In this document: positions 32,901 through 48,246 of the stretch, piece by piece | How the letters are laid out: the number at the start of each line of letters is the position of its first letter | Position numbering within the stretch: position 1 is the stretch's first letter | Source of the DNA: Ignavibacteria bacterium | GTDB taxonomy: Bacteria; Elusimicrobiota; Endomicrobiia; PHAN01 | Direction of reading: 5' to 3' | DNA: 50,546 nt | NCBI GenBank assembly: GCA_041694835.1 | Contig: JBGFRZ010000048.1 | Span: 1-50,546, forward strand | The notes under the pieces: model-generated | What the model was told of the DNA's origin: nothing | Seen by the model: the letters and a program-made list of their open reading frames with translations, nothing else | The model's database searches: none | Made by a program: the position numbers and the translations under genes

Positions 32901-34830
32901 AATGATTGTTCAAGACGGTGGTAGTAATATCCGCACTTTTGTCTGGGACGGAAGCGCATGGTCGACGGGCATAACCCTGCCTTTCGCCACAGAGGGCGCA
33001 GAACAGCGGTGTTTCGACGCTGTTTATGACACGCTTTGGAAAAGATTCATACTGGTTGCTTCCTCCCGCCAAGTGAACGGTGCAGTGCAATGGACAGTCT
33101 GGGATTCCACCTCGTGGGCGACTCCTCAACAATTTACCTTCGGCACCGGTGGCAATCCGCTTACAGCAAACACTGTCCGATGGATACGACTGGCCGCCCA
33201 TCCTTCGACGAACGAGATTTTGCTCGCAGTTGCCGACGGTGATGGAACAGGTCCTAATATCGGAGCAGCCGTCTGGAACGGCGCCTCATGGTCTCAATTA
33301 GCGACTGCCCTGGCGGGAAACTCCGGCGTGGCCGTAGGAAACAGACCTTTTGATGTTGCGTATGAGCAATCATCGGGTAAAGGTGTTATCGCCTTTGGAA
33401 ACAATGATTTTCCTGGAACACCGCGTTATATAACTTATACAACCGCCGGCGGTTGGGGAACTCCCGCATCAGCAAACAGTATAGGTGCAACAAATATTCG
33501 GTGGCTTTCACTGGTGGCTTTAAGTAACGCCAATGATATATTGATGGCCTGTTCTGATTCCGAGACAACACCGGATTTAAATTTGCAAAAATGGAATGCT
33601 TCATCTTGGGATGCAGTTACAGAAATAGAAACAAACACATCAGCGAGAGAAAGTTTTGCTGCTTCTTACAGATGGGACACACATGCCACTTTTGATACAG
33701 TTGCGCCCGGCGCGGTTAGCACCCTTACAGGGATTGTCCTCGGAGATGGCGCCGTGCGACTCACCTGGACAGCACCCGGCGACGACGGATTTAGCGGGGT
33801 CTTAAAATGCGGCTCCCGGTATCTTTTTGTCTATTCTACGGCAACTCCGACCGACTCGGAACTTACATGGCCGTCCACTTATTCCACTCTCATATCCACC
33901 TACGCCGTAAACCCGTCCGACATACAGCAAAGAATAATATCAGGACTCCCCTTTGAAACGACATGGTATTTCCGTCTAAGAACCAGAGACGAAGCGGGCA
34001 ACTGGTCTGCTCTTTCAAACGCCGCAACCGAATTCGTTCTCGTTGCCCCCGGGATGGTTACCGACCTTTCTGCGTCGACCGGATTGCGCGGCCGCACGAT
34101 AGACCTTAATTGGACAGCCCCCGGCGACGACGGTTATATCGGAATGCTTATCGCCGGCGCGAAATTCGCGATACAACGCTCCACCTGGTCTGATGTCGTC
34201 TGGTCAACTTTTTCCGCTGACACCGTTTTAATTTCCACCTCAGGCGTCAATCCCGGCGAAAGACAGTACCACACCCTGACCGCTCTTATTCCCGGCACGA
34301 CATATTTTGTCGCAATCTGGACTTCCGACGAAATCGGCAACTGGTCTATAAGGTCGTCTATAACGCAAGCATGGGCTCAGGTCGTGATTTTGAGTGTTAC
34401 GCTCACTCCCACAACCTACTACGACTTCGGTCTCCAACCAACAGCCATATCCACTAACTCGGCAACTGTTATTACCGTTGAAAACACGGGGAATGTAAAT
34501 GAAATCTATAAAATGCGTTCCACAAATTCCGCCAACTGGTTACTCGGCTCTTCAATCGGCTACGACATATTCGTTCTTCATGCGGCTTATCACGGCAGTC
34601 GTCCCACGGTTGACAATTTCGGCGCAAACGACAACAAAATGACGCTTACAGACAGAACTTCTTCGGCCACGGTCTTTACCATAGACGGTTCTCATACGGC
34701 TTCAAACATAGACCCTTTTGTCAACGACATCCGGAATCTATGGTTCAGGTTTGATACGCCCCTTGCGACATCAACATCTGTTCAGCAGACGATAAACGTA
34801 GTCATAACCGCCGAAGAAGCGTTTCCGTAG
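23986..34830 (+). CDS. Giant (3614 aa) secreted multidomain adhesin-like protein
   Basis: Signal peptide; three IDG..DW (DOMON/CBM9-like) starts; three lamin-tail-like domains (LIADV, VISEI, LINEV); FN3 repeats WTAPGDDG; WNG/WDG propeller-like region; pilin-like C-terminus. Confidence 0.85.
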   Translation: MPQKKLLTIAALVMFVFCCRLSYATTPNTIAIDAALGDWHSNEALGTSSGRQAYFTWDANNFYLGFNRNSTFENTDIVWIYISTVSPTSTWGTFTSVNAGGTHTLPFRAGWVYLRKPNGSYNNLRRWDGTQWLLDQTWTGTAAQDWTNGRIEASIPRSNIGNPSSIRIVIFITNDTNNWVFGISPRENPVDAGSGRVFGLSWYYPNAAAGGVFPNLVRYRYPGVLIADVSPGAGAAGNDYISLYNPNDESIFLSNLQAHHGLPTNFSFRLRTYNGATGTNKTLTVVSTNTVLSRGFTLLASGTPPKTADITFSAGLDTSDDGVVIAYSTTTTFGSDLWTLVDRLGWGAQGIALEGTALANPGTADSFQRKAWTTTASSASMRMDGEDAYAGHFMDTHNNSNDFVTLISSYISFNRLDPREGFLGQSWHIPDNTSDLGGTSMRNPFAAVYKNTVVNVYNGNQFQGSGNPGDQGGLTLYYKSVTDGAWTQISGVYDSVSGNNKYWRANFTNTWTRGTTVQYYLKVDYADSHDPTYLFWMSPNARRCYEMYVASTSPYSFLVLNTTPTVPGLTYPVGGEILMINNPVNISWNNSIDADGDSIKYIVELSTNNGLTWSVLTDTPTASPYGWVPTEGQASNQCFMRIRSSDTFSVSASSQSQVFIISSGNEPPNPPPALAQFGPAWQSWPVGEWKNFQQIRATFTLTDPNGANQVRFNIQFSTAPDFSYNFVSATSAFMSQGTTNYLTALLPDGTWYWRVRCGDDSGASNDWGTYSSMTVVNNRHFGVDNSSPTLPAAPTLSRAHIMSAGLDISWSVAVDTYSGVANYKIYRATYNFASVTGPNVTLVDTISHPTTTKQDSGLSPNTTYFYCLTATDNVGNTSIKTANAEIRTARVAIDGDASDWATATDAPRVGESTTTLVSVGGKTPYYEWIWRDKAGEQRTNSPRDSRNFDLRSFRVTADEEYIYFYTRSDNLTDKDFYHFCVAIDTGGATGLNWLGDDSNSNTNNGAAMGLGNEYGGGAIRAAAILAFRFISPAGTDFRIHIWRYGVTGWDNPVVGGAGNTACWLTTLAGGWIEAKVRRSDIDALGEKRLRIAAAVFDNKLGLIGDVDSSSSTAPGMPPDALDSMSIPSFGRNDERWTMNSWMEDISDSDIDFWAEIRLSSSGLKGNTQPAAPTLSSPENGATVYISTPTLQWSAPSDPDSADGDLVTSYMLEISTASDMSAMYWRTNVSSTVGATQSWTVHEGILLLETYYWRVAARDKSGAVSDFSSIRSFTVNTAKPSFDYVWPVRYSTVPHSGAGGGVNNNYYLTAGNTIQIYLRSYGISPKTITVDGDISDWTGTPAPSIHSRVISDNEWIYTGAKGDTRTDAAVIADVHNVDITEVRVAKDANNLYLLIKSSDITDTTRVHYAVGFDTDGDLTNGLTWIGDNSASPTAVQDNTHGGISLTTGRARVDRQYLLHNAGGVFRVERWGGSNWLNDPANESGLYGTRISAANDVVESSFSLSGLGITSTSTLRIVIMSFVDNPGWANDIDTTKSIGSTPPSDAVDGAWGRYGEAVTFWDREMSDGSIDNCMEVRLGGELASTIADFSFTINNSTSWINIASNVSTPYETKWGNTPGPLFTNAPDSSTGCVVGIRAVDSGGNAVTHLVAFHYWKGGPPDRITNLSSLTGTLPGEIRLSWTAPGDDGYIGNITGGFYRIKWATMTVSDWDAGTWTDWANRFSLEFSTDAVVSSTHARIVTELTEGVTYFFRIWTRDENPNNWSTISIPGATTWVRIDDMAPAAITNLSALHAMDGTGIVTLTWTAPSEDGAFGGAATSYTIKYATWNFTNFWDHPNVSTWTIRVPVPAAPGTTQTLRIISLNNNTTYFFHIRTTDDKGNVSPIDMGPVANCYVQHIVISEIQIDGATALDEFVELYNPLGTAIDLSTWLTRLFRRNSAGTDASMAITWLNSTIPAKGYLLLVATSTAGSYMGSVAPDATYTVATNNMVPDGAIYISTQTTATPVWSGTPGPWGYVAVDLVGYGAQPAGGFEGTAHPQGTIAANRSLERRALAGADPTTPPGLGQGNSWDTNNNAADFVYTTASNPQNSASPREPDTTPPNAVTNLSALTGAANGHIWLNWTAPSDNNANNDASGIWSYDIRYRTDGEVTDGNWSTATQIANEPSPATPGAQQWLLVTGLVQDVTYYFKIRVADNADNNSTLSNSAFTYAQSSGAILINEVAPASSPNFVEFLVTKPGCFRGLQFYGLSTAAGGIIELKTFPTSGVWNIPLPAGTYIVFNLTTGTDETSISAGRINLFHPTATSIVASDNNFIISDSFGLSISGTGEARAYASGAVIDYVVYEDQNTTRATGIISTKGTMIAQGQWSSIVDTAVHEPLAFDAQTSRGITGANSVARSTPTADTNSKADWSYQPVSTGAANLASTAYAGFGVCTALPVVALPNTSIIATFTYTDTTGAGSFAGDNVRHTYTIDISTHWPIPQTHSPGLLGFTTNTFSLPSGYLISIATLPAGGWRIIVPPGDIAGGATRLITYRGQTPTLEQTYTFTTRTDYRGVNVAEVGASSQPVIIVDGTPPGPVTNLSALLTGDLEIRLYWTAPGNNNYIGLLDEGSRFHIASTTVLIDAQNPAFWDGRRENAEIQISTSGINPGVSLSTGPYLLTDGTTYYFRIWTRDRAGNWSTLSNGATIFVRAIPPDPVSVFSAASTNVGTIDLSWNATGSDGSVGDITDGRFAIQRSTWVGVLWDIANAQINFSTNMVAGSAQIFRDFGLEPGATYFYRIWLRDRHVTGWSSLSVGATAVVLRSVDATGAFVVYYDSSTATYRQTPMLRGWMNNYFSSEYAMDLLDGSEPFGDGHWRFVSCPTRNEMLALVNTQKGASRALNAFVHNGSTWTRTLVTAALGSGADFASYDIAYEQLSGRAIVAYRRDATSEGRQVVYQIWNGSSWSSFLTATADFGTGNTIQWLKLYPKSQTNEIIMIVQDGGSNIRTFVWDGSAWSTGITLPFATEGAEQRCFDAVYDTLWKRFILVASSRQVNGAVQWTVWDSTSWATPQQFTFGTGGNPLTANTVRWIRLAAHPSTNEILLAVADGDGTGPNIGAAVWNGASWSQLATALAGNSGVAVGNRPFDVAYEQSSGKGVIAFGNNDFPGTPRYITYTTAGGWGTPASANSIGATNIRWLSLVALSNANDILMACSDSETTPDLNLQKWNASSWDAVTEIETNTSARESFAASYRWDTHATFDTVAPGAVSTLTGIVLGDGAVRLTWTAPGDDGFSGVLKCGSRYLFVYSTATPTDSELTWPSTYSTLISTYAVNPSDIQQRIISGLPFETTWYFRLRTRDEAGNWSALSNAATEFVLVAPGMVTDLSASTGLRGRTIDLNWTAPGDDGYIGMLIAGAKFAIQRSTWSDVVWSTFSADTVLISTSGVNPGERQYHTLTALIPGTTYFVAIWTSDEIGNWSIRSSITQAWAQVVILSVTLTPTTYYDFGLQPTAISTNSATVITVENTGNVNEIYKMRSTNSANWLLGSSIGYDIFVLHAAYHGSRPTVDNFGANDNKMTLTDRTSSATVFTIDGSHTASNIDPFVNDIRNLWFRFDTPLATSTSVQQTINVVITAEEAFP

Positions 34831-35076: not shown

Positions 35077-35358
35077 TTATCTTTTGAAAAATAAAAACAA
35101 TACCGTTGTAATTGAAGCAAACTGCCCAATCCAAAATATGAACATCCATTTTATCAATTCGGATTTCATTTGTTCAATCTTGACTTCTAATCGATTTACT
35201 TCTTTTGCCAGATCAGCTTTTGTTGCCACTTTATCAAGTAGAGCGGTATTATTTGTTTCCAGAGCAATCTCTACAGCCGAGGCAATAGTTTTTGCTTCAG
35301 GCTCATCAAACTTCTGTCGGAGCACTTCAAAAATTTTCAGTGTGTCGACGTATGCCAT
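35077..35358 (-). CDS. DUF1640/CCDC90-like coiled-coil membrane protein (93 aa)
   Basis: MAYVDTLKIF..., VATKADL, KSELIKWMFIFWIGQ, C-terminal TM; GGAG RBS. Confidence 0.8.
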   Translation of the reverse strand: MAYVDTLKIFEVLRQKFDEPEAKTIASAVEIALETNNTALLDKVATKADLAKEVNRLEVKIEQMKSELIKWMFIFWIGQFASITTVLFLFFKR

Positions 35359-35383
35359 AAAAAATCTCCAATTGTCCAATGTG

Positions 35384-35412
35384 ATTATACAAAAAATTTT
35401 GAAGTTTGTCAA
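35384..35412 (-). promoter_or_regulatory. Perfect-consensus sigma-70 promoter for the DUF1640-like gene
   Basis: Minus strand reads TTGACA-17 nt-TATAAT. Confidence 0.8.
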
Positions 35413-35815
35413 ATAGAAAATAGTATGTAGTAGGTAGTATGTAGGGAACAGCGAATAGCAAATAGTGGATAGGCAGTAGGCAGTAGGCAATAGTAGCCGC
35501 ACCGCGACATCGTTCTCAATCGGAGTAGAGCCTTCATGCTTGTAAAGGAGAGCATCAAATAGCGGATAGAGATGAGAGATGAGGGGTGAGAGAATAGCGA
35601 ATAGTGGATGGTGGCTGGTGATTGGTGACTGGAGGAAACGAGCCACGAGCCACGAGACACCGCTGCTCTGCTGCCCTGACTTGTGTTCTTGTGCCCTTGT
35701 GCTCCTGCATCCTGTATCGGTTCTGAACTCGTCTCTGTCCTCTGACTTGTGCCTTGTGCTTTGTTGTTCTGATGCTCTGCTGCTCTGACTTGTGCCCTTG
35801 TGCACTTGTGCTCTA
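35413..35815 (-). repeat. Mosaic heptamer element, copy A (inverted)
   Basis: Largely the reverse complement of ~39816-40110. Confidence 0.88.
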
Positions 35816-35833
35816 ATATAAGGAGGAATACTG

Positions 35834-36787
35834 ATGGACACATCTTGCCTTGAATTTCTCAGACGGAAAATTCGAACATTTGTTCGAATTTTTGCTGCGG
35901 TTGTTTTTTTTGCGTTTGCGCCTGAACTTTTTGCCGGCATAAGCACTCCGACCGCTGACATCGTTGTAACAAATCTCAGAATCGGCCAAACGTATAACCT
36001 CACCGAGATAGCCAACATGCCATTTCAAGTGAGAGCAATGGGGATTGAAAGACGCATCAAAATTGAGTTGTTAAAACCGGCGACAAATCAGACAAGACCC
36101 GGCTTTGAACCGATTCCCGATACAATGTGGCTCAATCTTCCGCGAACCGACTTTTTATTGCTTCCGGGCGAAACGGGAACAACCGACATAATACTCCAAA
36201 TCCCGAGTGACGAGTCGCTTCTTGGCAAAAAATTCGAAGTATTTATATGGGCCCGCACCGTGCCTAAAGACCCAACCGAAGCCGGAGCCATAGGTTTTGG
36301 CCTTGGCGTGCGGGGTTCGCTTCGTTTCACCATAGCTCCAAGACCGCCCACAAAAGAAGAACTTGAAAAATTCGCCAAATCAAGGTTTAAGGCAATCAAT
36401 CTCAGTTTGCTACCCAACGACCTTTTTGTTGATGACATCCCGCTCGGAAGAAGAGTGGATGTTGAAAGACAGACCGGCAAGTTTCTGCGCATCGTAAATG
36501 TCGCCGAAGAGCCCATCAAAATAAAATTAAAATGCGTGCCATCCACCGAGACAGGTCTTGTAATTCCTGAAGGATGGGAAGCTGAGCCGAACACGACGTA
36601 TCTGCGATTCCCGCAGGAAACGCTCACAATCAGACCGCTTGAAGTTAGAAAAATAAATTTCTCTCTGAATTTTCCAGGAGACGAAAAATACAGAAACAAA
36701 AAATATCTATTTATAGTCGAAGCCGCCATAGAGGGAGAACTCGTAAGAACCACGTACAGGTCAAAGGTTTGGGCAACTATTAAGTAG
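35834..36787 (+). CDS. Exported two-domain beta-sandwich protein, chaperone-like (DUF916/PapD-like); paralog of 39702
   Basis: Signal peptide; YNLTEIAN, EPIPDT.W, LLPGE, IP.DE..LGKK shared with 39702. Function inferred. Confidence 0.6.
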   Translation: MDTSCLEFLRRKIRTFVRIFAAVVFFAFAPELFAGISTPTADIVVTNLRIGQTYNLTEIANMPFQVRAMGIERRIKIELLKPATNQTRPGFEPIPDTMWLNLPRTDFLLLPGETGTTDIILQIPSDESLLGKKFEVFIWARTVPKDPTEAGAIGFGLGVRGSLRFTIAPRPPTKEELEKFAKSRFKAINLSLLPNDLFVDDIPLGRRVDVERQTGKFLRIVNVAEEPIKIKLKCVPSTETGLVIPEGWEAEPNTTYLRFPQETLTIRPLEVRKINFSLNFPGDEKYRNKKYLFIVEAAIEGELVRTTYRSKVWATIK

Positions 36788-36806
36788 AGCACAAGAGCAC
36801 AAGGTT

Positions 36807-37160
36807 ATGGAAGGGAAAGGGTATAGAAAATTACTTGTTTGGCAAAAGGCAGATGAGTTGGCAGTGGAAGTTTACATCATTACGAAAAAATTTCCGAGGG
36901 ATGAAATATATGGCATAACATCGCAATTGAGAAGAGCAACATTGTCAATTCCCACAAACATTGTGGAAGGTTACGGTAGACAGAGTAGAAACGAGTTAAG
37001 ACAGTTCATCAATATCGCCTTGGGTTCATTAGCGGAGACGGAATATCTTTTGGATTTTTCTTTAAGATTAAAGTACCTTACGATTGGGGAACATGCTAAA
37101 TTGTATAGTTTACATACGGAAGTCGGAAAAATATTATGGAAGTTCTACAAATCCTTATGA
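36807..37160 (+). CDS. Four-helix-bundle protein (23S rRNA IVP/Avd-like)
   Basis: LLVWQKA, FPRDEIYGITSQLRRA..SIPTNIVEG, IALGSLAE. Confidence 0.92.
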   Translation: MEGKGYRKLLVWQKADELAVEVYIITKKFPRDEIYGITSQLRRATLSIPTNIVEGYGRQSRNELRQFINIALGSLAETEYLLDFSLRLKYLTIGEHAKLYSLHTEVGKILWKFYKSL

Positions 37161-38137: not shown

Positions 38138-38292
38138 TGTAGCGCCCCGTTTTACAGGGGACTTTCCGCTTTAATGTAGCGGCGAAATTGCATTTCGCAA
38201 ATCTTTAATGTAGCGGTGCGATTGCCATCGCACAAATCGTCGCATAGCAATGCGACCGCAACAATGTCGCATAGCAATGCAACCGCAACAAT
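38138..38292. repeat. GTAG-REP cluster
   Basis: Three TGTAGCG-hairpins followed by two inverted units; part repeated at ~39497-39580. Confidence 0.8.
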
Positions 38293-38519
38293 CTGATAAC
38301 CACTAATCGGTGAACGATAAACGATGAACGATTGTTGGTCTTTCCTATCCCGATTTTATGTCGGGAGTGGATGGTCTAATAGTTCCGCCGTCGTTAAGTA
38401 TAGTTTTAATAAACGCGGCTATTCGCCGCATTAAAACTATAACTTCGGTGGACAGGCCGAAATTTTGAAGTAAAATTATCCCCGTAGAGGTAGACTTCTG
38501 TGTCCGCCAAAATAGGCGA

Positions 38520-38675
38520 GAAGTCAGGGGTCAGAAGTCAGAAGACAGAGGACAGAGGACAGAGGTTAGAGGTTAGAGGCGAGGGACGAGAGGTTAGGGA
38601 ATGGAAATTTTTATTCAATTCCTTGTCCCCTATCCTCTATTCTCTATACGCTATTCTCTCATCTCTCATCTCTGA
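38520..38675. repeat. Heptamer-repeat hairpin
   Basis: CAGAGGA/TAGAGGT units, a spacer, then CTATTCT/CTCATCT units. Confidence 0.8.
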
Positions 38676-38784
38676 CCAAAGACGGCTGATTTCCGCGGAA
38701 AAATTATTGGCGCTCCGACGGAAGTTGGAGCTTTCTTTTACAACACCTGCCGCTCAATCGGCGACTACATCTTATATAAATTAT

Positions 38785-38815
38785 GCCCCTAACACAATAG
38801 GGGCTTTTTTGTTTT
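38785..38815 (+). terminator. Putative intrinsic terminator
   Basis: GCCCCTA-ACACAA-TAGGGGC followed by TTTTTTGTTTT. Confidence 0.65.
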
Positions 38816-38967
38816 ATAGAGATAAACAATTTGGACGCAGATTTTCGCAGATAGGTATAGATAAAATGTTAAAGAATCTGCGTACATCGGCCTTTATCTG
38901 CGTTCGATTATTTAATATATCCATGAGCGGCATGTCGCCGTTCGGGGATTTTTTATTTTATGCATTA

Positions 38968-39111
38968 GAGCACAAGGGCACAAGAACACAAGTCAGGGCA
39001 GCAGAGCAGCGGTGTCTCGTGGCTCGTGGCTCGTTTCCTCCAGTCACCAGTCACCAGCCACCATCCACTATTCGCTATTCTCTCACCTCTCACCCCTCAT
39101 CTCTCATCTCT
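38968..39111 (+). repeat. Mosaic heptamer element, copy B (partial)
   Basis: Matches the core of copies A, C and D. Confidence 0.88.
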
Positions 39112-39129
39112 GAATTAAACAATTCTGCC

Positions 39130-39441
39130 GGCGGGCACAACTGTCTATACTCTACGGGGAGTTATGGAGTTTGTTCGCCGGCTTTTGATTTCGCCCCGTT
39201 AGAAGTAATCCCGACTGGTCGTGATGCCGATGCCTTTGGTATCGGACCTCTAACGGGGTTTAGGGCAGACACGTTGTTTACCTCTACGGGGAGTGTCAAA
39301 CAAAACGGTCTGCCCAAATTTTTTGGCAGGACGCAGAATATACCTCTACGGGGAGCGTATTTCATAAGTCGTCCTGCCTTTCAATTTTATGGGGCGGATA
39401 CGGAAGTCGACCTCTACGGGGAGTGTTGTGCCTGTCCGCCC
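39130..39441 (+). repeat. Four tandem hairpins centred on CTCTACGGGGAG
   Basis: Core at 39150, 39282, 39344, 39412; fifth copy near 47213; partial inverted copy ~38480-38507. Confidence 0.85.
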
Positions 39442-39579
39442 TATAATAATGTAGTCGCACCGCCTTGCGGTGATTGTAGTTGCCAATTGAGCGGCGATGT
39501 AGCGGTGCGATTGCCATCGCACAAATCGTCGCATAGCAATGCGATCGCAACAATGTCGCATAGCGATGCGACCGCTACA

Positions 39580-39705
39580 ATTTGGCAATGGAATTATTAC
39601 GAACACGTAATCCGCAATGAAAAGGCATTGTCAAAAATTAGAAATTACATTCAAAACACTCCGGAAAAAGAAAAGTATGATTGGAATAAATTGGAGGCAT
39701 TATGA
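39580..39705 (+). pseudogene. C-terminal remnant of a REP-associated tyrosine transposase (RAYT, Y1/IS200-like)
   Basis: IWQWNYYEHVIRNEKALSKIRNYIQNTP matches the WQ.NYYEH.IR...YI..NP motif; no HUH N-terminus; abuts REPs. Confidence 0.8.
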
Positions 39706-40973
39706 GTTTGAGGGTTAAAGAGTTTAAGAATTTAAGAGTTGGGGAACGGCGGGACAGAGCACAGGAGCACAAGAGTACAAGGGGAGTAGCCGCACCGCCT
39801 TGCGGTGCTGATTGTAGAGCACAAGAGCAGCAGAGCACAAGTGCACAAGGGCACAAGTCAGAGGACGGAGACGAGTTCAGAACCGATACAGGATGCAGGA
39901 TGCAGGAGCACAAGGGCACAAGAACACAAGTCAGGGCAGCAGAGCAGCGGTGGCTCGTGGCTCGTGGCTCGTTTCCTCCAGTCACCAGTCACCAGCCACT
40001 ATCCACTATTCGCTATTCTCTCATCTCTCACCTCTCATCTCTATGCTCTATCCTCTATTCTCTCTTCTCTATCCGCTATTCACTATTTGCTATTTGCTGT
40101 TTGCTATTTACCGCTTCTGTTTTTGCTTCTACTTTGTCAACCAACTTCGCCGAGGTTTTCGTTGACAACCTTAAAATCGGCGGTGCATACAATTTGACGG
40201 AAGTCGCAAATTTTCCTATGTGGATAGGATATCGCGGTGACGCTCCCACGGATTTAAAGATAGATATCGTTACGCCCTCGTCCACCGAACTCAAAAGCGG
40301 GTACGAGCCGATACCCGACACGTCATGGATAACCGTTTCGAAAAACATAATTTCGCTGCTTCCGGATGAAAGCGCCAATTTGGATGTGACGATAAACATT
40401 CCCAACGACGAGAAGTATCTCGGAAAAAAGTATCAGGCATACGTTCACGTGGTCACCGTTCCATCAAAGGACGCTAAAGGAATCGCAATCTCTTTGGCGC
40501 TGAAGGGTAGGGTGATTTTCGGCATAGCCAAGACACCTCCTACGGAGGCAGAACTGAGGGAGTTGAAGAAAAAAAAGATGATGGCTTCGCAGGGAGTGAT
40601 TATAACTCCGGAGAAATTTGAGGTATCAGTGGCTTCTTTCGAGAAGCGAATAAACGTTACTGAGGACGTTCCTTTGAAAATAATAAATTCGTCGAGGGAA
40701 AACGTGGCAATATTTGTGGAAATCGTAGAGCCGGACGCAAGTGGTGTGTCACTTCCACGGAATTACAAGAAAGGGGGGTTGTCTGACATTGTTTTGAGCA
40801 GGAAAAAATTCAATTTAAAACCCGATGGAATAGTAAACGTGGCGATTGCTTTAAATCCGCTGGAAAAGGAGGTGATAAAAGATGAAAAAATCAGGTTGTT
40901 CTACGTGGTTCGACTGAACATTAAATCGCCGACTATTGAGATTGTTAGATTTGTGAAAATTTATATTAATTAG
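39702..40973 (+). CDS. Chaperone-like exported protein, paralog of 35834, with repeat-encoded N-terminus (copy C, ~39816-40110)
   Basis: Mature part from ~40128 aligns with 35834; GGAGG before ATG 39702. Alternative start at 39900. Confidence 0.65.
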   Translation: MSLRVKEFKNLRVGERRDRAQEHKSTRGVAAPPCGADCRAQEQQSTSAQGHKSEDGDEFRTDTGCRMQEHKGTRTQVRAAEQRWLVARGSFPPVTSHQPLSTIRYSLISHLSSLCSILYSLFSIRYSLFAICCLLFTASVFASTLSTNFAEVFVDNLKIGGAYNLTEVANFPMWIGYRGDAPTDLKIDIVTPSSTELKSGYEPIPDTSWITVSKNIISLLPDESANLDVTINIPNDEKYLGKKYQAYVHVVTVPSKDAKGIAISLALKGRVIFGIAKTPPTEAELRELKKKKMMASQGVIITPEKFEVSVASFEKRINVTEDVPLKIINSSRENVAIFVEIVEPDASGVSLPRNYKKGGLSDIVLSRKKFNLKPDGIVNVAIALNPLEKEVIKDEKIRLFYVVRLNIKSPTIEIVRFVKIYIN

Positions 40974-41122
40974 GAGGTTTTATGGGGACATCCATGTTTT
41001 TTGAAAAGCTTTTTCTGGTATTCGAACATTTGTTCGAATTTACCGTCGGAGAAATTGCGGGAAATCGCGGATCTCCGTACGAATATTTTAATTCATCTCT
41101 TTTGAAAGAGAAAGGAGGAGGT

Positions 41123-41734
41123 ATGTTGAAGAAGTTTTTGTTTTTACTATGCGTCCCGATTTTGGGACTGCTCTTGTTGACGGCAAAGCCGGCGGATGCG
41201 GCTACAAGCGTCAGCGCAAACATCGTGCTGAGGGCGACCGTTACCATAAGCGTGTCGTTGGTTACGCCAAACACATGGTACACCTTCGGAGAAGTGTCGG
41301 CTGCTTCAACCAACTACTCAAATACACCAATAGTGGTTCGCAACGATTCGCTCGGCGCCATCTGCAGGTGGGATTTGAACATCGATCCGACATCGTTAGC
41401 GGGATGGACGCTCGGAAGCGCTCCAGGACTTGACCAGGTGGCGTTGTTTGCTCGTTTTAGAAAAACGGACCAGCCGACTGATGCGATGTTTGTTGCAAGT
41501 AGCACCTTGAGCGCCACCGCAAAGGAGTACAACGCGATAAACTTCTATGACTCCGATTACGACACTGACGGTCATCTGAATGATGCGTCTAAAATTCTTC
41601 CACAGGCATACGCTATCACCGTTGGAAAAAGCGCCGACAGAAGACTCTGGCTTAAACTCCAGACGCCGACTCTTGTAACCGACCAGAACTGGAGAACGCT
41701 TCGTTTGGTTGTTACGGCGAAGATGGCGGGATAG
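41123..41734 (+). CDS. Exported pilin-like protein 2
   Basis: AGGAGG RBS, signal peptide ...ADA, ends RRLWLKLQTP...TLRLVVTAK; similar to the giant protein C-terminus. Confidence 0.65.
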   Translation: MLKKFLFLLCVPILGLLLLTAKPADAATSVSANIVLRATVTISVSLVTPNTWYTFGEVSAASTNYSNTPIVVRNDSLGAICRWDLNIDPTSLAGWTLGSAPGLDQVALFARFRKTDQPTDAMFVASSTLSATAKEYNAINFYDSDYDTDGHLNDASKILPQAYAITVGKSADRRLWLKLQTPTLVTDQNWRTLRLVVTAKMAG

Positions 41735-41740
41735 GCGGGG

Positions 41741-41896
41741 AAGTGAAAAGTTGAATGTGGAAAGATAGTATGTAGTAGGTAGGGAACAGCAGAAAGTGGA
41801 AGGTTAAATGTTGAATGTTGAAGAGTTCAAGAGTTGAATGGTTGGAGAGTTGAAGTGTTGAAAGTGAAAAGTTGAATGTGGAAAGCGAATAGCGAA
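41741..41896 (+). repeat. Purine-rich 7/8-mer tract with an internal direct repeat
   Basis: AAGTGAAAAGTTGAATGTGGAAAG at 41741 and 41862. Confidence 0.75.
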
Positions 41897-41920
41897 AATC
41901 TCAGACACTGATACTAAACT

Positions 41921-44914
41921 ATGAGAACACAGGTTTCACCGCTGACTATCTTTTTAAGATTGCTCCTGTCGATGTTTGTGGCAGGGCAGGGTCTCCCTCC
42001 GCCCGCTTGGGCTTCGGCGCTTGTTCAACTAAGGGTGTCTTCGCCTTATACGGGCAATCCATCCGCTGTTACGAACCTTCAGGCAGAGCCTGATTTTTCA
42101 CTACCCGAGGAACAGGGTAAAATCCGTCTTAACTGGTCTACTCCTTCGGATGCCGGCGGAAAGAGTGTGTTTTCTTACTTGATAAAATATGCAACTTTCA
42201 GCGTTGCCGAACTTTCAGGCGACACAACGACATGGTGGAATCATCCTTTGTCCATAACGGCAACCGAAAGTTCGATTCCTCCGAATTTTGGAAGAACGGC
42301 AAAAGCGGCTCCCGGCTCGACGGAGACATTTGTAATCAGCGGTCTTGTGTCCGGAGATTTTTATTACTTTGGCGTCAAAGTCATAGATAGATACAACAGA
42401 CTTTCTGACCGGGACGCTCAGTTTAGAGGAATAACTACACAGGGACGTGCATTCGCAACAACTCCGCCGTGGACGCCGTCAAAAGTGACAGATCTCGTCG
42501 GGGCGTCTTTAGAAATACCGGCAAGAGTTCGACTCACATGGACGATGCCATCGTTCTGGAATGAGAGCAATGAAGTCGTTCCGGGACACATAAAGCAACC
42601 CGGGTTATACTGCATACAATACTCGACGGCACTTCCGCCGACGAATTTAGACAAGCCGAATCAGCCTAACAACTGGACGGCATCAGTCCGTCATTATATT
42701 TCAACTCAAAATGTCCGCACGGGGGATTTGCAATCATATGTATTGACGGGACTCACTCAAAATACCACTTATTATATCCATATTTTCACTCGAAACGAAT
42801 GGCCGGACAAGTGGTCTTCTGAGTCAGCCCCTCTAACACTGGTCAGGCCTTACATATCCTTGAAAGCGGTGGAAAATCTTTTTGCTGTCGCTGGCGGTTC
42901 AACCACGGAAGGGCTTGGAAGTTTTGTAACGCTTTCATGGAAGAATCCTTCAGACGAGCAATTCTTCAGAGGCGCTCGCATAGTCTTTTCGACTACATCT
43001 TATCCCCCATCGCCAAATGAGTCGAATTTCATTGATGTAGAGCCGCTGGTTTTAGGCGATACCACTGATTATGTCCATATTCAGTTATTGCCAAGAACCA
43101 CACATTACTATTCTATTTTTGCTTATGACATAAACAGATTTTATTCATCGGCCACTTATACAAGCGTATACACCAACGTTGACCTACTTGCGCCCTCAGA
43201 GATTTCAAACATAACCTCGTTCATTTCTCTTGACAGAACCGGTGATTCAGACAAATACAACATAAACTTAAGTTGGACGAAGCCGACTACCCCCCTTCAC
43301 AGAAACATTGATTACGAAGGCGCAAGAATCTATTTCAGCACGTTGACGCCCGACGCGGTCCAACATACGTTTTTGGCGGCGGCGACAGGCAGAACATTTG
43401 TTCACGAAGTTTTGACGCCTTATACAACATACTTCTACTCATTTGCCAGTTACGACGCCGTCGGGAACAAACAACCAGTTTCTGAACGTTCGTCGCATTT
43501 GGTCTATATATCGGAAAAAGATGTTCCGCCATCTCCGCCGGTTTTAATATCGTCCATTTATTCGTCAAACAGAGAGTTCGCCGAAGGATGCAAACTCGCT
43601 TTGAGATGGAAGGCGCCCGCCGAAATTCAAGTTGAGAGAATCGTTATAAGAGCCGCTTACGATGATTTCCCGTCGGATATATCTAAAGGCGAACAATTTC
43701 TTGAATACTTCTCCGCCCCAGGCGAGGAGTCTTCAAGAGAGTTCAAACGTTTGCTTTCACTAACCACTCATTACATTTCTATTTTTGCTGTTTCCAAATA
43801 CGGTCTTGCTTCAATGCCCGTAAGGCATTCGTTCTATACCCATATTCCATGGACGGACACGGTCGCACCGTTTAAGCCGCTTGATTTAAGGATAGTCGGC
43901 AGACAAATGACCTGGAGCCCCGTGGCGTTCAACGCGGAACTAAAAGCCATACCAAACCCCTCAACACCCGATATATCCGATGTCTACTTCTATGAAATCC
44001 ACACAAGCACGTCAATAAGAGGAGGATGGGGCATCCTGACCCGGCTTTCGCCGACTGTCACGTCGTATAATCTTCCAATTTCCGACGGAGTTCGCTACTA
44101 CAAATGTCGCGCGCTCGACGCAAGCGGAAATTTTGCGGACTCATATGTGCTCGATTCAAATAAAAACATATATGCGCTTGCGTCCGACAAGAGTTTTGTT
44201 TTCGTGCCGGGCGAACTCTTCGAGACGGAAAAATCCGGCAAGGACAAATTTGTGCTCTCGCTTTCAAGAAACACTTCTGACGAGAAAGGAAGTATTTATA
44301 AATCGTTAAACGTTCGGGTTGACAGATTGCATGTTTCCACATCTTCGCTGACGCTTGAAAATATGCAGGGCTTTAATCTCGGAAGTTCAAAATGCAAAAT
44401 AGCCTTTAGTTACGAAGTTTCCGACGGCAAACTGAAATTCGGAGCGCCTTCTGTAAACGTTGCAGATGCCACCAATTCTCTCGGTATATTTTACTTTAAC
44501 GGTGTCGAGTGGACACGACTAAACACGGTCGTGGTTGATGCCGAAAATTCAGTCAAATCAAATATCCGATTTGCCGGCACTTATCATTTAAGATATTCTC
44601 CGACGACGGGCGAATTTGCCTTCTACGATGTTGTTCCTAAAATCATAACTCCGAATAACGATGAACTCAACGACCGGGCGCTCTTCAGGTTCTCAAATCC
44701 AAAATTACAGAGCGTCTCGCTTAAAATATTCGACATAAACTCCGCTCTTGTCAAAGACATAGGAGAGACTACAAAAACATCCGACATACCGGGCGAGTAT
44801 ATTTTCTGGGACGGCACCGATAAGGACAACAGAGTCGTTCAGCCCGGAGTTTATCTGTATCAGTTGGAAGTCGACGGAAAAGTCATAAATGGAACGATTG
44901 TTGTTGCAAGGTAA
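41921..44914 (+). CDS. Secreted FN3-repeat protein with FlgD-Ig/gliding-motility-type C-terminal domain
   Basis: Repeated L.W..P...T.YY modules; C-terminus ITPNND..ND, WDG, PGVYLYQ, NGTIVVAR. Confidence 0.8.
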   Translation: MRTQVSPLTIFLRLLLSMFVAGQGLPPPAWASALVQLRVSSPYTGNPSAVTNLQAEPDFSLPEEQGKIRLNWSTPSDAGGKSVFSYLIKYATFSVAELSGDTTTWWNHPLSITATESSIPPNFGRTAKAAPGSTETFVISGLVSGDFYYFGVKVIDRYNRLSDRDAQFRGITTQGRAFATTPPWTPSKVTDLVGASLEIPARVRLTWTMPSFWNESNEVVPGHIKQPGLYCIQYSTALPPTNLDKPNQPNNWTASVRHYISTQNVRTGDLQSYVLTGLTQNTTYYIHIFTRNEWPDKWSSESAPLTLVRPYISLKAVENLFAVAGGSTTEGLGSFVTLSWKNPSDEQFFRGARIVFSTTSYPPSPNESNFIDVEPLVLGDTTDYVHIQLLPRTTHYYSIFAYDINRFYSSATYTSVYTNVDLLAPSEISNITSFISLDRTGDSDKYNINLSWTKPTTPLHRNIDYEGARIYFSTLTPDAVQHTFLAAATGRTFVHEVLTPYTTYFYSFASYDAVGNKQPVSERSSHLVYISEKDVPPSPPVLISSIYSSNREFAEGCKLALRWKAPAEIQVERIVIRAAYDDFPSDISKGEQFLEYFSAPGEESSREFKRLLSLTTHYISIFAVSKYGLASMPVRHSFYTHIPWTDTVAPFKPLDLRIVGRQMTWSPVAFNAELKAIPNPSTPDISDVYFYEIHTSTSIRGGWGILTRLSPTVTSYNLPISDGVRYYKCRALDASGNFADSYVLDSNKNIYALASDKSFVFVPGELFETEKSGKDKFVLSLSRNTSDEKGSIYKSLNVRVDRLHVSTSSLTLENMQGFNLGSSKCKIAFSYEVSDGKLKFGAPSVNVADATNSLGIFYFNGVEWTRLNTVVVDAENSVKSNIRFAGTYHLRYSPTTGEFAFYDVVPKIITPNNDELNDRALFRFSNPKLQSVSLKIFDINSALVKDIGETTKTSDIPGEYIFWDGTDKDNRVVQPGVYLYQLEVDGKVINGTIVVAR

Positions 44915-44953
44915 AGACAGGGTATAGGGTGTAGGAGGGTGTAGGAGAGAGAT

Positions 44954-45325
44954 ATGTTGAAGAATTATAAAGGGTTAATCGTGTGGAAAAAGGCATATGG
45001 ATTATGTTTGAGCGTGTATAAAATAACAGAAAAGTTTCCATCGACAGAGAAATATGGATTAGTTTCGCAGATGAGAAGATGCTCCGTTTCTATTGTCTCA
45101 AATATTGCGGAGGGATATCAAAGACAGTACAGTGGTGAATACATCCAATTTTTATATATATCGTTTGGAGCGTGTGCCGAGTTGGAAACACAAATTATGT
45201 TGAGCAAGGATTTGAAATTCATTGCAAGTGAGGATTGCGAAGCGATTTTAAGTGTTTTAACTGAAATTGAAAAAATGTTGAGTTCTTTGTTGAGAAAAAT
45301 TAAAGAACGCGGAGGAAATTTATGA
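44954..45325 (+). CDS. Four-helix-bundle protein (23S rRNA IVP/Avd-like)
   Basis: LIVWKKA, FPSTEKYGLVSQMRRCSVSIVSNIAEG, ELETQ. Confidence 0.92.
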   Translation: MLKNYKGLIVWKKAYGLCLSVYKITEKFPSTEKYGLVSQMRRCSVSIVSNIAEGYQRQYSGEYIQFLYISFGACAELETQIMLSKDLKFIASEDCEAILSVLTEIEKMLSSLLRKIKERGGNL

Positions 45326-46941
45326 AAAAAACAGAGTTCAGAGTTCAGGGTTCAGGGTTCAGGGTTTTTGTTTTAGTCCTTTTCTATGCCCTATCCCCTA
45401 TACCCTGTCTTTACGCTGCTTTTGAAGAAATTACCGTCGGAGGACGCGCTGCAGGGCTCGGCGGAGCATATACGGCTCTTGGCGACGCTTACTCAATTTA
45501 TTACAACCCCGCCGGCATTTCGGCTATTGCGAGAGCGGAGTTTGGGGCACAGTACTCACGGCTTCATCTGGGGCTTGACGACGGCTCCGACCTTTCAAAC
45601 GCTTTCGTCGGCATAGCCCAGCCGCTAAAATTCAAAAACGACTACGGAACAATCGGTCTTGGGTGGCTGAGGTTTGCGCTTTCGGGTTTATATCAGGAAA
45701 ATACTATAATTTTATCCTACGGGAAAGATGCTGTTTTGGACCGTCTGATGGTCGGTTTAAATGCCAAATTCATCTTGTTGACTTACGGCGAAGATGCTTA
45801 CACAAAGAACGCGATGACAAATGAGGGACAGCCGAGCGGAATAAAAGACACGCTTTTTGAAAAGGGTAACTCAAAGTCGGCGTTTGATTTTGATTTTGGA
45901 CTCAAATATCCGCTTGCCGAAAATTACACAATTGGAGCGGTGGTTCAGAACATCGTCGGAGCAAATGTGTCTCTTGTCAACGCTCCCGATGTTACGCTTT
46001 CAAGAAGATTAAAACTCGGCATGTCGCATACGGGCAAAAATTATCTTCTAACTTGCGATATAGCGACCGACACAAGAACCAACGCAATAAGAGGGATGCT
46101 CGGCGGCGAGAAAAGTTTCGATTTCGGAGGCGTTTTAAGAGGAGGGCTTGGCATCGGCTCTGACGGTTGGGCGAATTTTACAGCTGGCATCGGATATAAA
46201 ACCGATGGGCTCAACTTTGATTACGGCCTTATATGGCCGATGGCCGGAATAAAAGACACTTACGGCAGTCATCGTGTTTCGCTGAACTTTAAATTCGGCC
46301 CGGTCATTCGTCTGCCCGAGAAAGAATCGGAACTTCAAATTCGTCTTGCAAAGGAAACTACGACAAGGAGGGAACTCGAAGAGAAATATAAAGTTTCGGA
46401 GATAGAACTCACAAAAGCGCGCGAAGAAATCAAGCAGTTGAGAAATCAGATAGAAGAACTTCTGAAGCGACCTGCGACCGCTCCTCCTCCCAGAGAAATT
46501 CCCGCCCCGAAAGTGAAAGATGTTCCGGCTGTCCCGTCCGTTCCTAAGAAACCTGCGGTAAAAGTTGAAGAAATAAAACCCGAGCCCCCGACGGACACGG
46601 AACAACTTAAAGCGACATACATAAAGGAATACAACCAGTATCAGAGGGATGCCGCGAAACTCGACATCAAAAAACGGCTCCATATAGTAGAGAACATTAT
46701 AGCGCGCTATTCGGGTAAAATAAAGATAACGGAAGCCCTCGACGAGCAAATGCTCCTCAGAAATGAATTCGCCGCCCAGACAAAGTTTTACAACGACGCG
46801 ATTGCTTATTATCGTCGTCTTGTTAGGCAGGGGATTTCTGCTGAAGAAAGACGAGACATCTTAAATCGCATGATGAAAAAATATGATGCCATGGGCGTGG
46901 ATGTTAGTGCTGCCAGAGAGGAGTTGAAACAAGTAAAATGA
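45322..46941 (+). CDS. PorV/UPF0164-like outer-membrane beta-barrel with coiled-coil, Pro-rich and helical tail
   Basis: GGRAAGLGGAYTAL...YYNPAG, barrel end HRVSLNFKFG, then PATAPPPREIPAP. Confidence 0.72.
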   Translation: MKKTEFRVQGSGFRVFVLVLFYALSPIPCLYAAFEEITVGGRAAGLGGAYTALGDAYSIYYNPAGISAIARAEFGAQYSRLHLGLDDGSDLSNAFVGIAQPLKFKNDYGTIGLGWLRFALSGLYQENTIILSYGKDAVLDRLMVGLNAKFILLTYGEDAYTKNAMTNEGQPSGIKDTLFEKGNSKSAFDFDFGLKYPLAENYTIGAVVQNIVGANVSLVNAPDVTLSRRLKLGMSHTGKNYLLTCDIATDTRTNAIRGMLGGEKSFDFGGVLRGGLGIGSDGWANFTAGIGYKTDGLNFDYGLIWPMAGIKDTYGSHRVSLNFKFGPVIRLPEKESELQIRLAKETTTRRELEEKYKVSEIELTKAREEIKQLRNQIEELLKRPATAPPPREIPAPKVKDVPAVPSVPKKPAVKVEEIKPEPPTDTEQLKATYIKEYNQYQRDAAKLDIKKRLHIVENIIARYSGKIKITEALDEQMLLRNEFAAQTKFYNDAIAYYRRLVRQGISAEERRDILNRMMKKYDAMGVDVSAAREELKQVK

Positions 46942-47280
46942 CGAATGATGAATAGTATGTAGTATGTGGTAGGTAGTATGTAGGGAACAGCGGATAGTAG
47001 CGGTGGGATTGAAAGGAAAATTGTCAAAGGAAAAAGGAAAATTGTAGTTGCTGATTTATCGGTAGTACAAAGGAAAATTGCCGAAGGAAAAATAAAAAAT
47101 TTCGGGGCGGACCCCGTTAGAAATCTCCAATAGGGGGATGCCGCCCATAAAAACTTTTAATTTTCTCTCTAACTCGACGACAACTTCTAACGGGGCGGAC
47201 ACAAAAGTCAACCTCTACGGGGAGTGTTGTACCTGTCCGCCCCTTATACACCCCCATCCCCTCTTGATAGAGGGGAATTT
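46939..47280. repeat. Composite intergenic repeats (stop-phased heptamers, REP remnants, CCCCGTTAGA element, UACG hairpin)
   Basis: Direct matches to the same motifs elsewhere in the window. Confidence 0.75.
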
Positions 47281-47310
47281 TTGAATTTTTAAATCAAAAG
47301 AGGTAAAATT

Positions 47311-47874
47311 ATGAAAAGACAAAAGACAGAGACGAGAGGTGAGAGGACAGAGGTGAGAAGACAGAGGTCAGAGGCCAGAGGCGAGTTCAGAACCGATACA
47401 GGATGCAGGATGCAGGAGCACAATGGCACAAGAACACAAGTCAGGGCAGCAGAGCAGCAGAGCAGCGGTGGCTTGTGGCTCGTGGCTCGTTTCCTCCAGT
47501 CACCAGTCACCAGCCACCATTCACTATTCGCTATTCTCACCCTATCTACTATCTACTACCTACTACCTGCTAAATTATATGCAGATTTTAAACTCAGCGA
47601 AGTCAGGCCCAGAATAATGACTATTGGCTCCTCAAGCATGAACGACAGAATATTTTTCAAGTTTGAACCATCGGAGGTATACAAATTGAAATTAACGGTA
47701 TTCAGTTTGGACGGAATAAGTGTGAGAGAAGTCTCATATAATAATGACGGCAGCGGGCGGATATTCTGGGAGGGGAAAAATAACGACGGAATTTTTGTTC
47801 TGCCCGGTGTTTACATATACCAGTTGGAAGCGGGCAAAAAGGTTGTCAATGGCGCGATTGTTGTTGCCAGATAG
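47311..47874 (+). CDS. Stand-alone FlgD-Ig/CTD-like protein with repeat-encoded N-terminus (copy D, ~47382-47570)
   Basis: C-terminal half resembles the 41921 C-terminus (FWEG, PGVYIYQLE, NGAIVVAR); GAGG RBS. Confidence 0.72.
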   Translation: MKRQKTETRGERTEVRRQRSEARGEFRTDTGCRMQEHNGTRTQVRAAEQQSSGGLWLVARFLQSPVTSHHSLFAILTLSTIYYLLPAKLYADFKLSEVRPRIMTIGSSSMNDRIFFKFEPSEVYKLKLTVFSLDGISVREVSYNNDGSGRIFWEGKNNDGIFVLPGVYIYQLEAGKKVVNGAIVVAR

Positions 47875-47892
47875 AGCACAAGGCACAAGGTT

Positions 47893-48246
47893 ATGGAAGG
47901 GAAAGGATATAGAAAACTACTCGTGTGGCAAAAGGCGGATGAGTTAGCAGTGGAAGTTTACATCATTACGAAAAAATTTCCGAGGGATGAAATATATGGC
48001 ATAACATCGCAACTGAGAAGAGCAACATTGTCAATTCCCACAAACATTGTGGAAGGATATGGCAGACAGAGTAGAAATGAGTTAAGACAGTTTATCAACA
48101 TTGCTTTGGGTTCGTTGGCAGAGACGGAATATCTTTTGGATTTTTCTTTAAGGTTGAAATATCTTACAATTGAAGAACACGCTAAATTGTATAGTTTGCA
48201 TACGGAGGTCGGAAAAATATTATGGAAGTTCTACAAATCCTTATGA
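47893..48246 (+). CDS. Four-helix-bundle protein, 116/117 aa identical to 36807
   Basis: Direct comparison of the two translations. Confidence 0.92.
   Translation: MEGKGYRKLLVWQKADELAVEVYIITKKFPRDEIYGITSQLRRATLSIPTNIVEGYGRQSRNELRQFINIALGSLAETEYLLDFSLRLKYLTIEEHAKLYSLHTEVGKILWKFYKSL

Follow-up and report, generated by a model that had tools for sequence, protein, structure and literature searches.

We analysed a 50,546-nt contig (JBGFRZ010000048.1, assembly GCA_041694835.1) of an Ignavibacteria bacterium (GTDB lineage Elusimicrobiota; Endomicrobiia; PHAN01), hereafter the window, in which three open reading frames (ORFs) with putative signal peptides begin with presequences written in short tandem repeats. 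The best explanation, to which we give a probability of about 0.7 from the sequence comparisons, is that repeat arrays of gene junctions were absorbed into the starts of genes for exported proteins and now encode Sec-type signal peptides, whose translation and export we infer. The proposed source is a large family of short, degenerate arrays of 7- and 8-nt units that lie at gene junctions with a polarity fixed along transcription, often as complementary arms around a spacer or around a cassette carrying an IVP gene (PF05635, 23S_rRNA_IVP), some being joined into a dispersed 180-nt composite element. Insertion or expansion of such arrays may have taken place downstream of the start codon and ahead of the signal-peptidase site, where their purine-rich codons would supply a long n-region of K, R, E, Q and G and their T/C-rich codons a hydrophobic core of L, F, I, S, Y, C and P, and the old c-region and mature N-terminus would be retained. 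Selection would keep only in-frame, stop-free insertions, and the outcome would be an ordinary Sec-type signal peptide that is unusually long and written in repeat DNA.

Arrays detected by Tandem Repeats Finder (TRF) cover the 140-, 32- and 91-aa presequences of the ORFs starting at 39702, 45322 and 47311 (ORF1, ORF2 and ORF3; Table 1), in agreement with the initial annotation, which had described these N-termini as repeat-encoded. Its description of the units as heptamers stands in part, since 7-mers are present together with 8-mers, e.g., AGAGCACA and CAGAGCAG. The window gave 46 TRF rows of period 7 and 23 of period 8, compared with a mean of 1.4 rows for each period in 20 second-order Markov simulations of the window, and these arrays are therefore not a product of chance. 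The purine-rich arrays translate to R/E/K/Q/G/T-rich peptide and the pyrimidine-rich ones to L/S/I/Y/F/C/P/H; T/C-rich codons spell hydrophobic and small residues because of the standard genetic code. The earlier assignment of R/E/K/Q/G residues to purine-rich and L/S/I/Y/F/C residues to pyrimidine-rich units is recovered in the translations of the ORFs.

By inspection, all three presequences have a positively charged n-region, which reads MKKTEFRV in ORF2 and MKRQK in ORF3 and has R/K within the first 13 residues in ORF1. Hydrophobic stretches, identified by eye, precede SVFA, CLYA and KLYA, those of ORF1 and ORF3 being interrupted by S, T, Y, H or R. These three motifs, proposed earlier as cleavage-like sites, align with the signal-peptide ends of homologues in ORF1, ORF2 and ORF3 alike. 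Homologues of ORF1 (~300-320 aa) have ordinary signal peptides of 20-30 aa that end right before STLSTNF-type sequence, and in 19 homologues of ORF2 the signal peptide ends right before AFE or a variant such as SFE or AFG, matching the end of the ORF2 presequence. A word-based protein search for homologues of the small mature part of ORF3 gave no candidate; a six-frame genome search located its syntenic orthologues after the barrel gene as open frames of 124-149 aa, and the three that were read as DNA have ordinary signal peptides ending before the EFRLVDVKPR-like start of the domain.

All three ORFs begin at an ATG with a Shine-Dalgarno (SD)-like motif upstream. In ORF2 the ATG at 45322 is the sole in-frame ATG/GTG/TTG start, with GGAGG 6 nt upstream, and it overlaps the TGA of the IVP gene. 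GGAGG also precedes ATG 39702 of ORF1, and GAGG the upstream ATG of ORF3; both ORFs probably initiate at these first upstream ATGs. None of the three ORFs offers an ATG, GTG or TTG downstream of the arrays and ahead of the mature protein. Over its first 150 nt, ORF1 has 0 stops in its own frame, whereas each alternative frame has 4 (Poisson P(0) at a mean of 4, 0.018).

The same layout recurs in the outer-membrane barrel family to which ORF2 belongs. In the source genome (G000; 1.9 Mb in 89 contigs, 42% G+C, the window being contig C52), which the names of homologues assign to Elusimicrobiota/Endomicrobiia, a profile placed the conserved mature start of 19 barrel paralogues, all of which have an in-frame upstream start. 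Among the last 20 presequence codons, at least four are array-coded in 16 of these barrels, at least seven in 13, and none in three. The reading frame was also followed at the 28 gene ends where ATGA is followed by an array. The ATG frame closes within 30 codons in 16 cases, which fits an accidental ATGA, and stays open for at least 30 codons in 12, 10 of these continuing into the next gene for 100 codons or more and two ending at 31 and 89. With an unconstrained frame, in-frame cases should make up one third of those that pass the arrays, and the probability of 10 or more out of 12 is 5e-4 under p = 1/3. An SD-like motif precedes 31% of the first starts of array-bearing ORFs (n = 80), 31% of those of other ORFs (n = 1382) and 11% of internal start codons (n = 18994). 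The ATGA-type 4-nt overlap of start and stop occurs in 16 of 106 array-bearing ORFs and 135 of 1219 others (Fisher p 0.20, no difference). Start context and frame statistics fit translation of the arrays and suggest it, as good but indirect evidence. Together with the single start of ORF2, the conserved cleavage position and the 16 of 19 barrels, they support the earlier proposal that the repeats act as a source of n-region plus h-region.

The presequences belong to a much larger set of repeats. In G000, TRF reported 800 rows of period 7 and 403 of period 8, compared with 48 of period 6 and 151 of period 9; the merged arrays number 1104 and make up 1.9% of the genome, 601 of them being intergenic by crude gene calls. 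Their polarity is fixed, with purine-rich arrays after the upstream stop and pyrimidine-rich arrays before the next gene. Spacers between co-directional genes contain 125 purine-rich and 20 pyrimidine-rich arrays in their first third and 23 and 56 in their last (Fisher p 8e-18), and the arrays overlapping the 3' ends of ORFs are purine-rich in 46 cases and pyrimidine-rich in 3. It follows from this polarity that the pyrimidine-rich arm adjoins the downstream start; 97 ORFs have a pyrimidine-rich array in their 5' part. Arrays also occur in frame in a housekeeping gene, that for Glu/Gln-tRNA synthetase (G000 C6:7683-9329, minus strand), where an insert of ~65 aa made of purine-rich and then pyrimidine-rich arrays splits the catalytic domain into two Pfam stretches. 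Short in-frame arrays in the middle of apparently cytoplasmic proteins give an LSTLNSQ-type peptide at four further loci (Table 1). The notion that the arrays are intrinsically stop-free was rejected for arrays in general, as intergenic arrays contain 1107 sense stop triplets versus 765 in within-array shuffles.

Intrinsic freedom from stops applies only to the composite element, a mosaic of 7/8-nt arrays of ~180 nt with four copies in the window (A, B, C and D), of which C and D lie in ORF1 and ORF3. It has 50 matches in G000, the long ones with 81-97% identity, and no match in the 20 relatives searched. Its 37 places of at least 60 nt comprise 22 intergenic, 14 sense in the 5' part of ORFs and one antisense, and it is thus a dispersed element with many high-identity copies, those in ORFs being in frame and stop-free. 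The frame in which ORF3 reads the shared core differs from that of ORF1 because copy D has an extra 8-nt unit; the alignment of the copies and the translations agree here with the initial annotation, which had noted the extra unit and the shift. The same annotation had noted that the frame is kept open in both ORFs. This is no sign of selection, as untranslated copy B is equally stop-free in three sense frames. Counts of sense stops per frame are 0, 0, 0 in copies C and B and 0, 1, 0 in copy D, copy A has one stop, and antisense frames have 1-9 stops across the copies. Openness across the composite element is a property of the element and not of selection on ORF1 and ORF3. A check for terminal repeats showed the copies to be mosaics of modules with a candidate terminal motif that did not generalise: GTAAAGACAG and CTGTCTTTAC were rejected as general termini giving a TAA stop and CLY codons, the TAA being the stop of a called gene at only 4 of 57 TAAAG[AG]CAG sites and only 9 of 28 TGTCTTTAC sites lying in the 5' part of a gene.

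Several observations weigh against the absorption of arrays as signal peptides. At 91-140 aa, and up to ~150 aa at other loci of the genome, presequences with Arg or His within the hydrophobic stretch are far from the textbook form. The ORF1 start at ATG 39702 shares bases with the stop of a preceding ORF, itself probably no gene, and a REP (repetitive extragenic palindromic)-like palindrome lies within the first 150 nt of ORF1. Long ORFs through the composite element can be accidents given its three open frames, and the minus-strand ORF of 313 aa at 35077-36018, which runs through copy A, is one. The real minus-strand gene there encodes a 94-aa CCDC90-like protein from near 35361, ~220 codons further down, and the CCDC90-like profile aligns from its position 1 to residue 5 of this short form. 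ORF 35077-36018 also overlaps the plus-strand gene 35834-36787 and is probably an artefact. The genes of the census were called crudely, by taking the longest ORF with a codon score, and the comparison covers few kin genomes, which are not independent of one another.

The orthologues of ORF1 (48% identity) and ORF3 (52% identity over residues 1-96 of 96) in relative G001 have ordinary short signal peptides, and the array-coded presequences of ORF1 and ORF3 are therefore derived. At the junction orthologous to that of ORF2, relatives G002 and G006 have an ordinary signal peptide and no IVP cassette, G009 combines REP-like hairpins in the spacer with, again, an ordinary signal peptide; in G001 the arms belong to a different 7-mer family, and the right one is once more read as h-region. 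In the orthologue group of another barrel (G000 C53:5161), G000, G001 and G002 all have a CCCTATN-type array in frame at the corresponding site. Barrels with at least four array-coded codons make up 3 of 10 usable loci in G001, 2 of 7 in G002 and 0 of 6 in G009, counts that leave out seven minus-strand loci (L045, L051, L054, L057, L062, L056 and L059). The presequence at 45322-45417 of the window has the same build as those of barrels L038 and L044 of G001 and L040 of G002, which run from a purine-rich arm (CAGGGTT type) through a T-rich loop (F/V/I) and a pyrimidine-rich arm (CCCTATA type) to CLYA or CLYG.

The arrays of ORF2 are also part of an IVP cassette. The gene at 44954-45325 matches PF05635 with E 9e-38 and 129 bits, above the cut-off of 33.8, and is bracketed by complementary arms (25 nt, 44911-44935 with 45390-45414), whose long-range stem folds better than shuffles (z -3.6). 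G000 has 12 full PF05635 genes, 11 of them with complementary repeat arms. In four cassettes the right arm falls within the presequence codons of the next ORF, and all four of these ORFs, including three of the 19 placed barrels, have signal-peptide-like N-termini; in the other armed cassettes the right arm lies before the start or in codons 0-5 of an ORF judged by eye to be over-extended. The outermost stem pairs (44911-44920 and 45405-45414) join the region of the upstream TAA stop to the C-L-Y codons of the cleavage site, as they do in a second cassette on contig C55 of G000. The outer stem motif likewise stands on both sides of the orthologous junction in G001; it is not a general terminus.

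The initial annotation had proposed phase variation, in which slippage by one 7- or 8-nt unit would toggle the surface-protein genes as a contingency mechanism. A change by one unit does shift the frame, the units not being multiples of 3 and lying within coding sequence; copies of the composite element differ by unit-sized indels (+8 nt in D, -7 nt in A), and the genes encode surface or outer-membrane proteins. However, the longest perfect run is 3.4 units in the three presequences and 6 units in the whole genome, compared with the 13-24 units with which a heptanucleotide switch studied in Haemophilus influenzae was built (PMC8262952). Moreover, all 19 placed barrel paralogues are in frame, similar arrays are in frame inside the catalytic domain of Glu/Gln-tRNA synthetase, and the CCCTATN-type array has stayed in frame across two genera. 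We consider phase variation by gain or loss of a 7-mer unsupported and highly improbable. It is very unlikely, too, that ORF1 and ORF3 are genes damaged by insertion of the element, with accidental frames and proteins that are not made or not exported. This would account for an element that is stop-free in three frames, for the accidental 313-aa ORF through copy A and for the ordinary short signal peptides of the G001 orthologues, but the mature parts of both ORFs are intact and conserved, both have an in-frame ATG with an SD motif, their layout is the rule in the barrel family, and the frame test favours selection.

Translation could also start inside the composite element, at ATG 39900 or GTG 39957 in ORF1 and at ATG 47410, TTG 47473 or GTG 47482 in ORF3, so that translation would be confined to the pyrimidine-rich arrays and the purine-rich arrays would form a 5' leader. 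We regard this as a lesser possibility. Both element copies have an in-frame ATG with AGGA upstream, and presequences shortened to 34-74 aa would come nearer to known long signal peptides; the upstream ATGs, however, have the stronger SD motifs (GGAGG and GAGG), the first 150 nt of ORF1 are open in the ORF frame only, ATGA-coupled starts anchor equally long presequences elsewhere in the genome, and the GTG and TTG candidates lack an SD-like motif. A main role of the arrays as RNA or DNA hairpins at junctions (in mRNA processing, stability or translational coupling), with the peptide as a tolerated by-product, seems unlikely despite the folding of the IVP-cassette arms (z -3.6), the complementary arms at 11 of 12 IVP genes, the strict polarity and the build of the G001 and G002 presequences as purine-rich arm, T-rich loop and pyrimidine-rich arm. 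The presequence regions of ORF1 and ORF3 fold no better than shuffles (z +0.9 and -1.2), a hairpin reading of them was rejected, with only the central GTGGCTC/CCAGTCA hairpin standing out in their minimum-energy structures, and cleavage of the stem in the manner of rRNA intervening sequences would cut the signal-peptide codons of ORF2. A role of the hairpins is compatible with array-coded signal peptides and does not exclude them.

The arm-loop-arm unit could even be a portable signal-peptide cassette, a short hairpin of repeats with a functional export signal that moves or is copied between outer-membrane protein genes, a distinctly unlikely extension that is hinted at because the array families of ORF2 match those of G001 and G002 paralogues and not those of its own G001 orthologue, which uses a different unit family, and because at least four G000 genes have one MRKPF-plus-array presequence. 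In addition, such a hairpin might link the structure of the mRNA with translation where the genes of an operon meet. This presequence, MRKPF followed by the same array-coded hydrophobic stretch, is nearly common to the four genes (Table 1), between which the export signal seems to have been copied.

Parts of this arrangement have counterparts in known systems. In the opa genes of Neisseria, CTCTT pentamers lie in the coding sequence of the leader peptide, and changes in their copy number toggle the frame at ~1e-3 per cell per generation (PMC3745409). The likeness lies in a translated tandem repeat, not a multiple of 3, in the signal-peptide coding region of an outer-membrane protein gene. In the opa repeat, as presented in the sections of the paper that deal with it, one perfect unit is repeated, whereas the window arrays have many different units and are short and degenerate, with no more than 3.4 perfect units in a row, and arrays of this type occur genome-wide, including in a housekeeping gene, with all 19 placed paralogues in frame. 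Rickettsia palindromic elements are units of ~150 bp with a conserved peptide that lie in frame inside unrelated metabolic genes (PMC10969869). Judging from the passages of that report that describe them, both are dispersed repeat elements translated as part of the host protein; ours differ in being mosaics of 7/8-nt arrays at gene junctions, whose translated part replaces a functional module, the signal peptide. Heptamer repeats of the TAACTGA type are linked to the cyanobacterial short tandemly repeated repetitive (STRR) sequences. In Beggiatoaceae, Cyanobacteria and Bacteroidetes most of them stand ahead of start codons, and a role as binding sites for regulators is discussed (PMC4679880). 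They resemble the window arrays as abundant short heptamer direct repeats near start codons, with relatives differing by indels in 7-nt steps; unlike the window arrays, they consist of one unit and, in the sections of the source on their distribution and role, are not discussed as coding sequence.

The 23S rRNA intervening sequences carry a gene for a PF05635 protein. The IVP cassette shares with them a gene for a four-helix bundle of this family bracketed by complementary arms, but it stands between protein genes, and its right arm forms the signal-peptide codons of the next gene. Signal sequences of exceptional length are frequent among autotransporters (PMC2805444). The signals of autotransporters and of two-partner secretion resemble the window presequences in being Sec signals with an N-terminal extension before a normal h-region and c-region. 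The extension of autotransporter signals is a conserved sequence domain of modest length. Ours, in contrast, measures 60-110 aa, is repeat-coded and is not conserved in sequence. None of the compared systems joins dispersed mixed-unit arrays with a signal-peptide role, and our literature search, which extended to sources other than subscription journals and supplements, found no description of signal peptides coded by repeat arrays or of IVP cassettes whose arms are repeats.

If the arrays are translated, the sequence demands of export signals would be so slack that repeat DNA from gene junctions can write them outright, and this would have happened in most members of an outer-membrane protein family in this lineage. 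Export would then also tolerate presequences of 90-150 aa, and the genome would provide a natural experiment on the limits of signal peptides. Translation would also call for caution with gene callers and signal-peptide predictors on uncultured genomes, would tie intergenic repeat arrays and IVP cassettes to protein evolution, and would dispose of a tempting yet unsupported phase-variation claim for an environmental bacterium.

Table 1. Coordinates of the genes, repeat arrays and element copies discussed; positions refer to the window unless a contig of G000 is given.
Feature	Position	Strand	Remarks
ORF1	39702-40973	+	423 aa; presequence 140 aa (39702-40121), mature part from 40122; family unknown, predicted exported
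ORF1 presequence TRF arrays	39704-39740, 39756-39781, 39816-39857, 39885-39930, 39950-39999, 40006-40109	+	
ORF1 pyrimidine-rich heptamer arrays (CTATTCT, GCTATTT)	40006-40109	+	encode hydrophobic end of presequence
Signal-peptide protein	between ORF1 and Fn3/CTD gene		203 aa; co-directional
Fn3 protein with CHU_C-like C-terminal domain (CTD)	41921-44914	+	997 aa
Left IVP-cassette arm	44911-44935	+	purine-rich; begins at stop codon of Fn3/CTD gene
IVP gene, PF05635 (23S_rRNA_IVP)	44954-45325	+	four-helix bundle; inserted between Fn3/CTD gene and barrel gene
ORF2, PorP/SprF/TraF_2-like outer-membrane barrel	45322-46941	+	539 aa; presequence 32 aa (45322-45417)
ORF2 presequence arrays	45332-45366, 45384-45406	+	
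CAGGGTT x5 array	45332-45366	+	encodes ORF2 n-region; TRF 96% matches
Right IVP-cassette arm	45384-45414	+	pyrimidine-rich; ORF2 codons 23-31, end of h-region and c-region
ORF3, CTD-only mini-protein (FlgD_ig/CHU_C-like)	47311-47874	+	187 aa; presequence 91 aa (47311-47583)
ORF3 presequence arrays	47335-47385, 47395-47417, 47442-47490, 47496-47572	+	
Second PF05635 gene	after ORF3		member of co-directional set
Composite element, copy A	35559-35820	-	upstream of small minus-strand gene; lacks one 7-nt unit
Composite element, copy B	38968-39111	+	outside any supported gene, untranslated
Composite element, copy C	39852-40051	+	part of ORF1 presequence; central GTGGCTC/CCAGTCA hairpin in minimum-energy fold
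Composite element, copy D	47358-47567 (47350-47600 in the comparison with the other copies)	+	in ORF3; one extra 8-nt unit compared with copies C, B and A
MRKPF presequence genes (G000)	C6:51-2414, C6:4134-5738, C6:6098-7033, C79:29999-30931		
LSTLNSQ-type loci (G000)	C55:38358-39665, C84:23618-24556, C87:3846-5174, C9:16324-16902		

The genes discussed form a co-directional set at 39.7-47.9 kb of the window, and the relatives keep the order Fn3/CTD gene, barrel, mini-protein. ORF2 is named PorP/TraF-like only, because its TraF_2 match of 19 bits is under the Pfam gathering score of 25; its homologues carry precomputed PF13729/PF11751 assignments and PorP/SprF names. The FlgD_ig match of ORF3 (E 0.003) is likewise under the Pfam cut-off. 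Two PF05635 genes of the window, at 36797-37096 and 47883-48182, have 91% identity over 300 nt, and both are flanked by the arms AGCACAAG and CTTGTGCT.

Upstream of the set, a 3614-aa ORF at 23986-34830 has an ordinary signal peptide and, by eye, many Fn3-like repeats, and its stop codon is followed by stop-rich arrays of the GTAGTAG type. Tandem repeats of 27 nt at 38239-38292 and 39512-39581 (2.0 and 2.5 copies, 94% alike) are of another class than the 7/8-mer arrays. The long ORF at 38500-39705 is without a Pfam match, and its 3' end presumably resembles the C-terminus of a REP-associated tyrosine transposase. Palindromes of the form GGGCGGA...CTCTACGGGGAG...TCCGCCC recur near it (38470-38508, 39391-39441, 39585-39705 and 47192-47242), and hairpins of similar type with CTCTACGGGGAG fill spacers in relatives G001 and G009.

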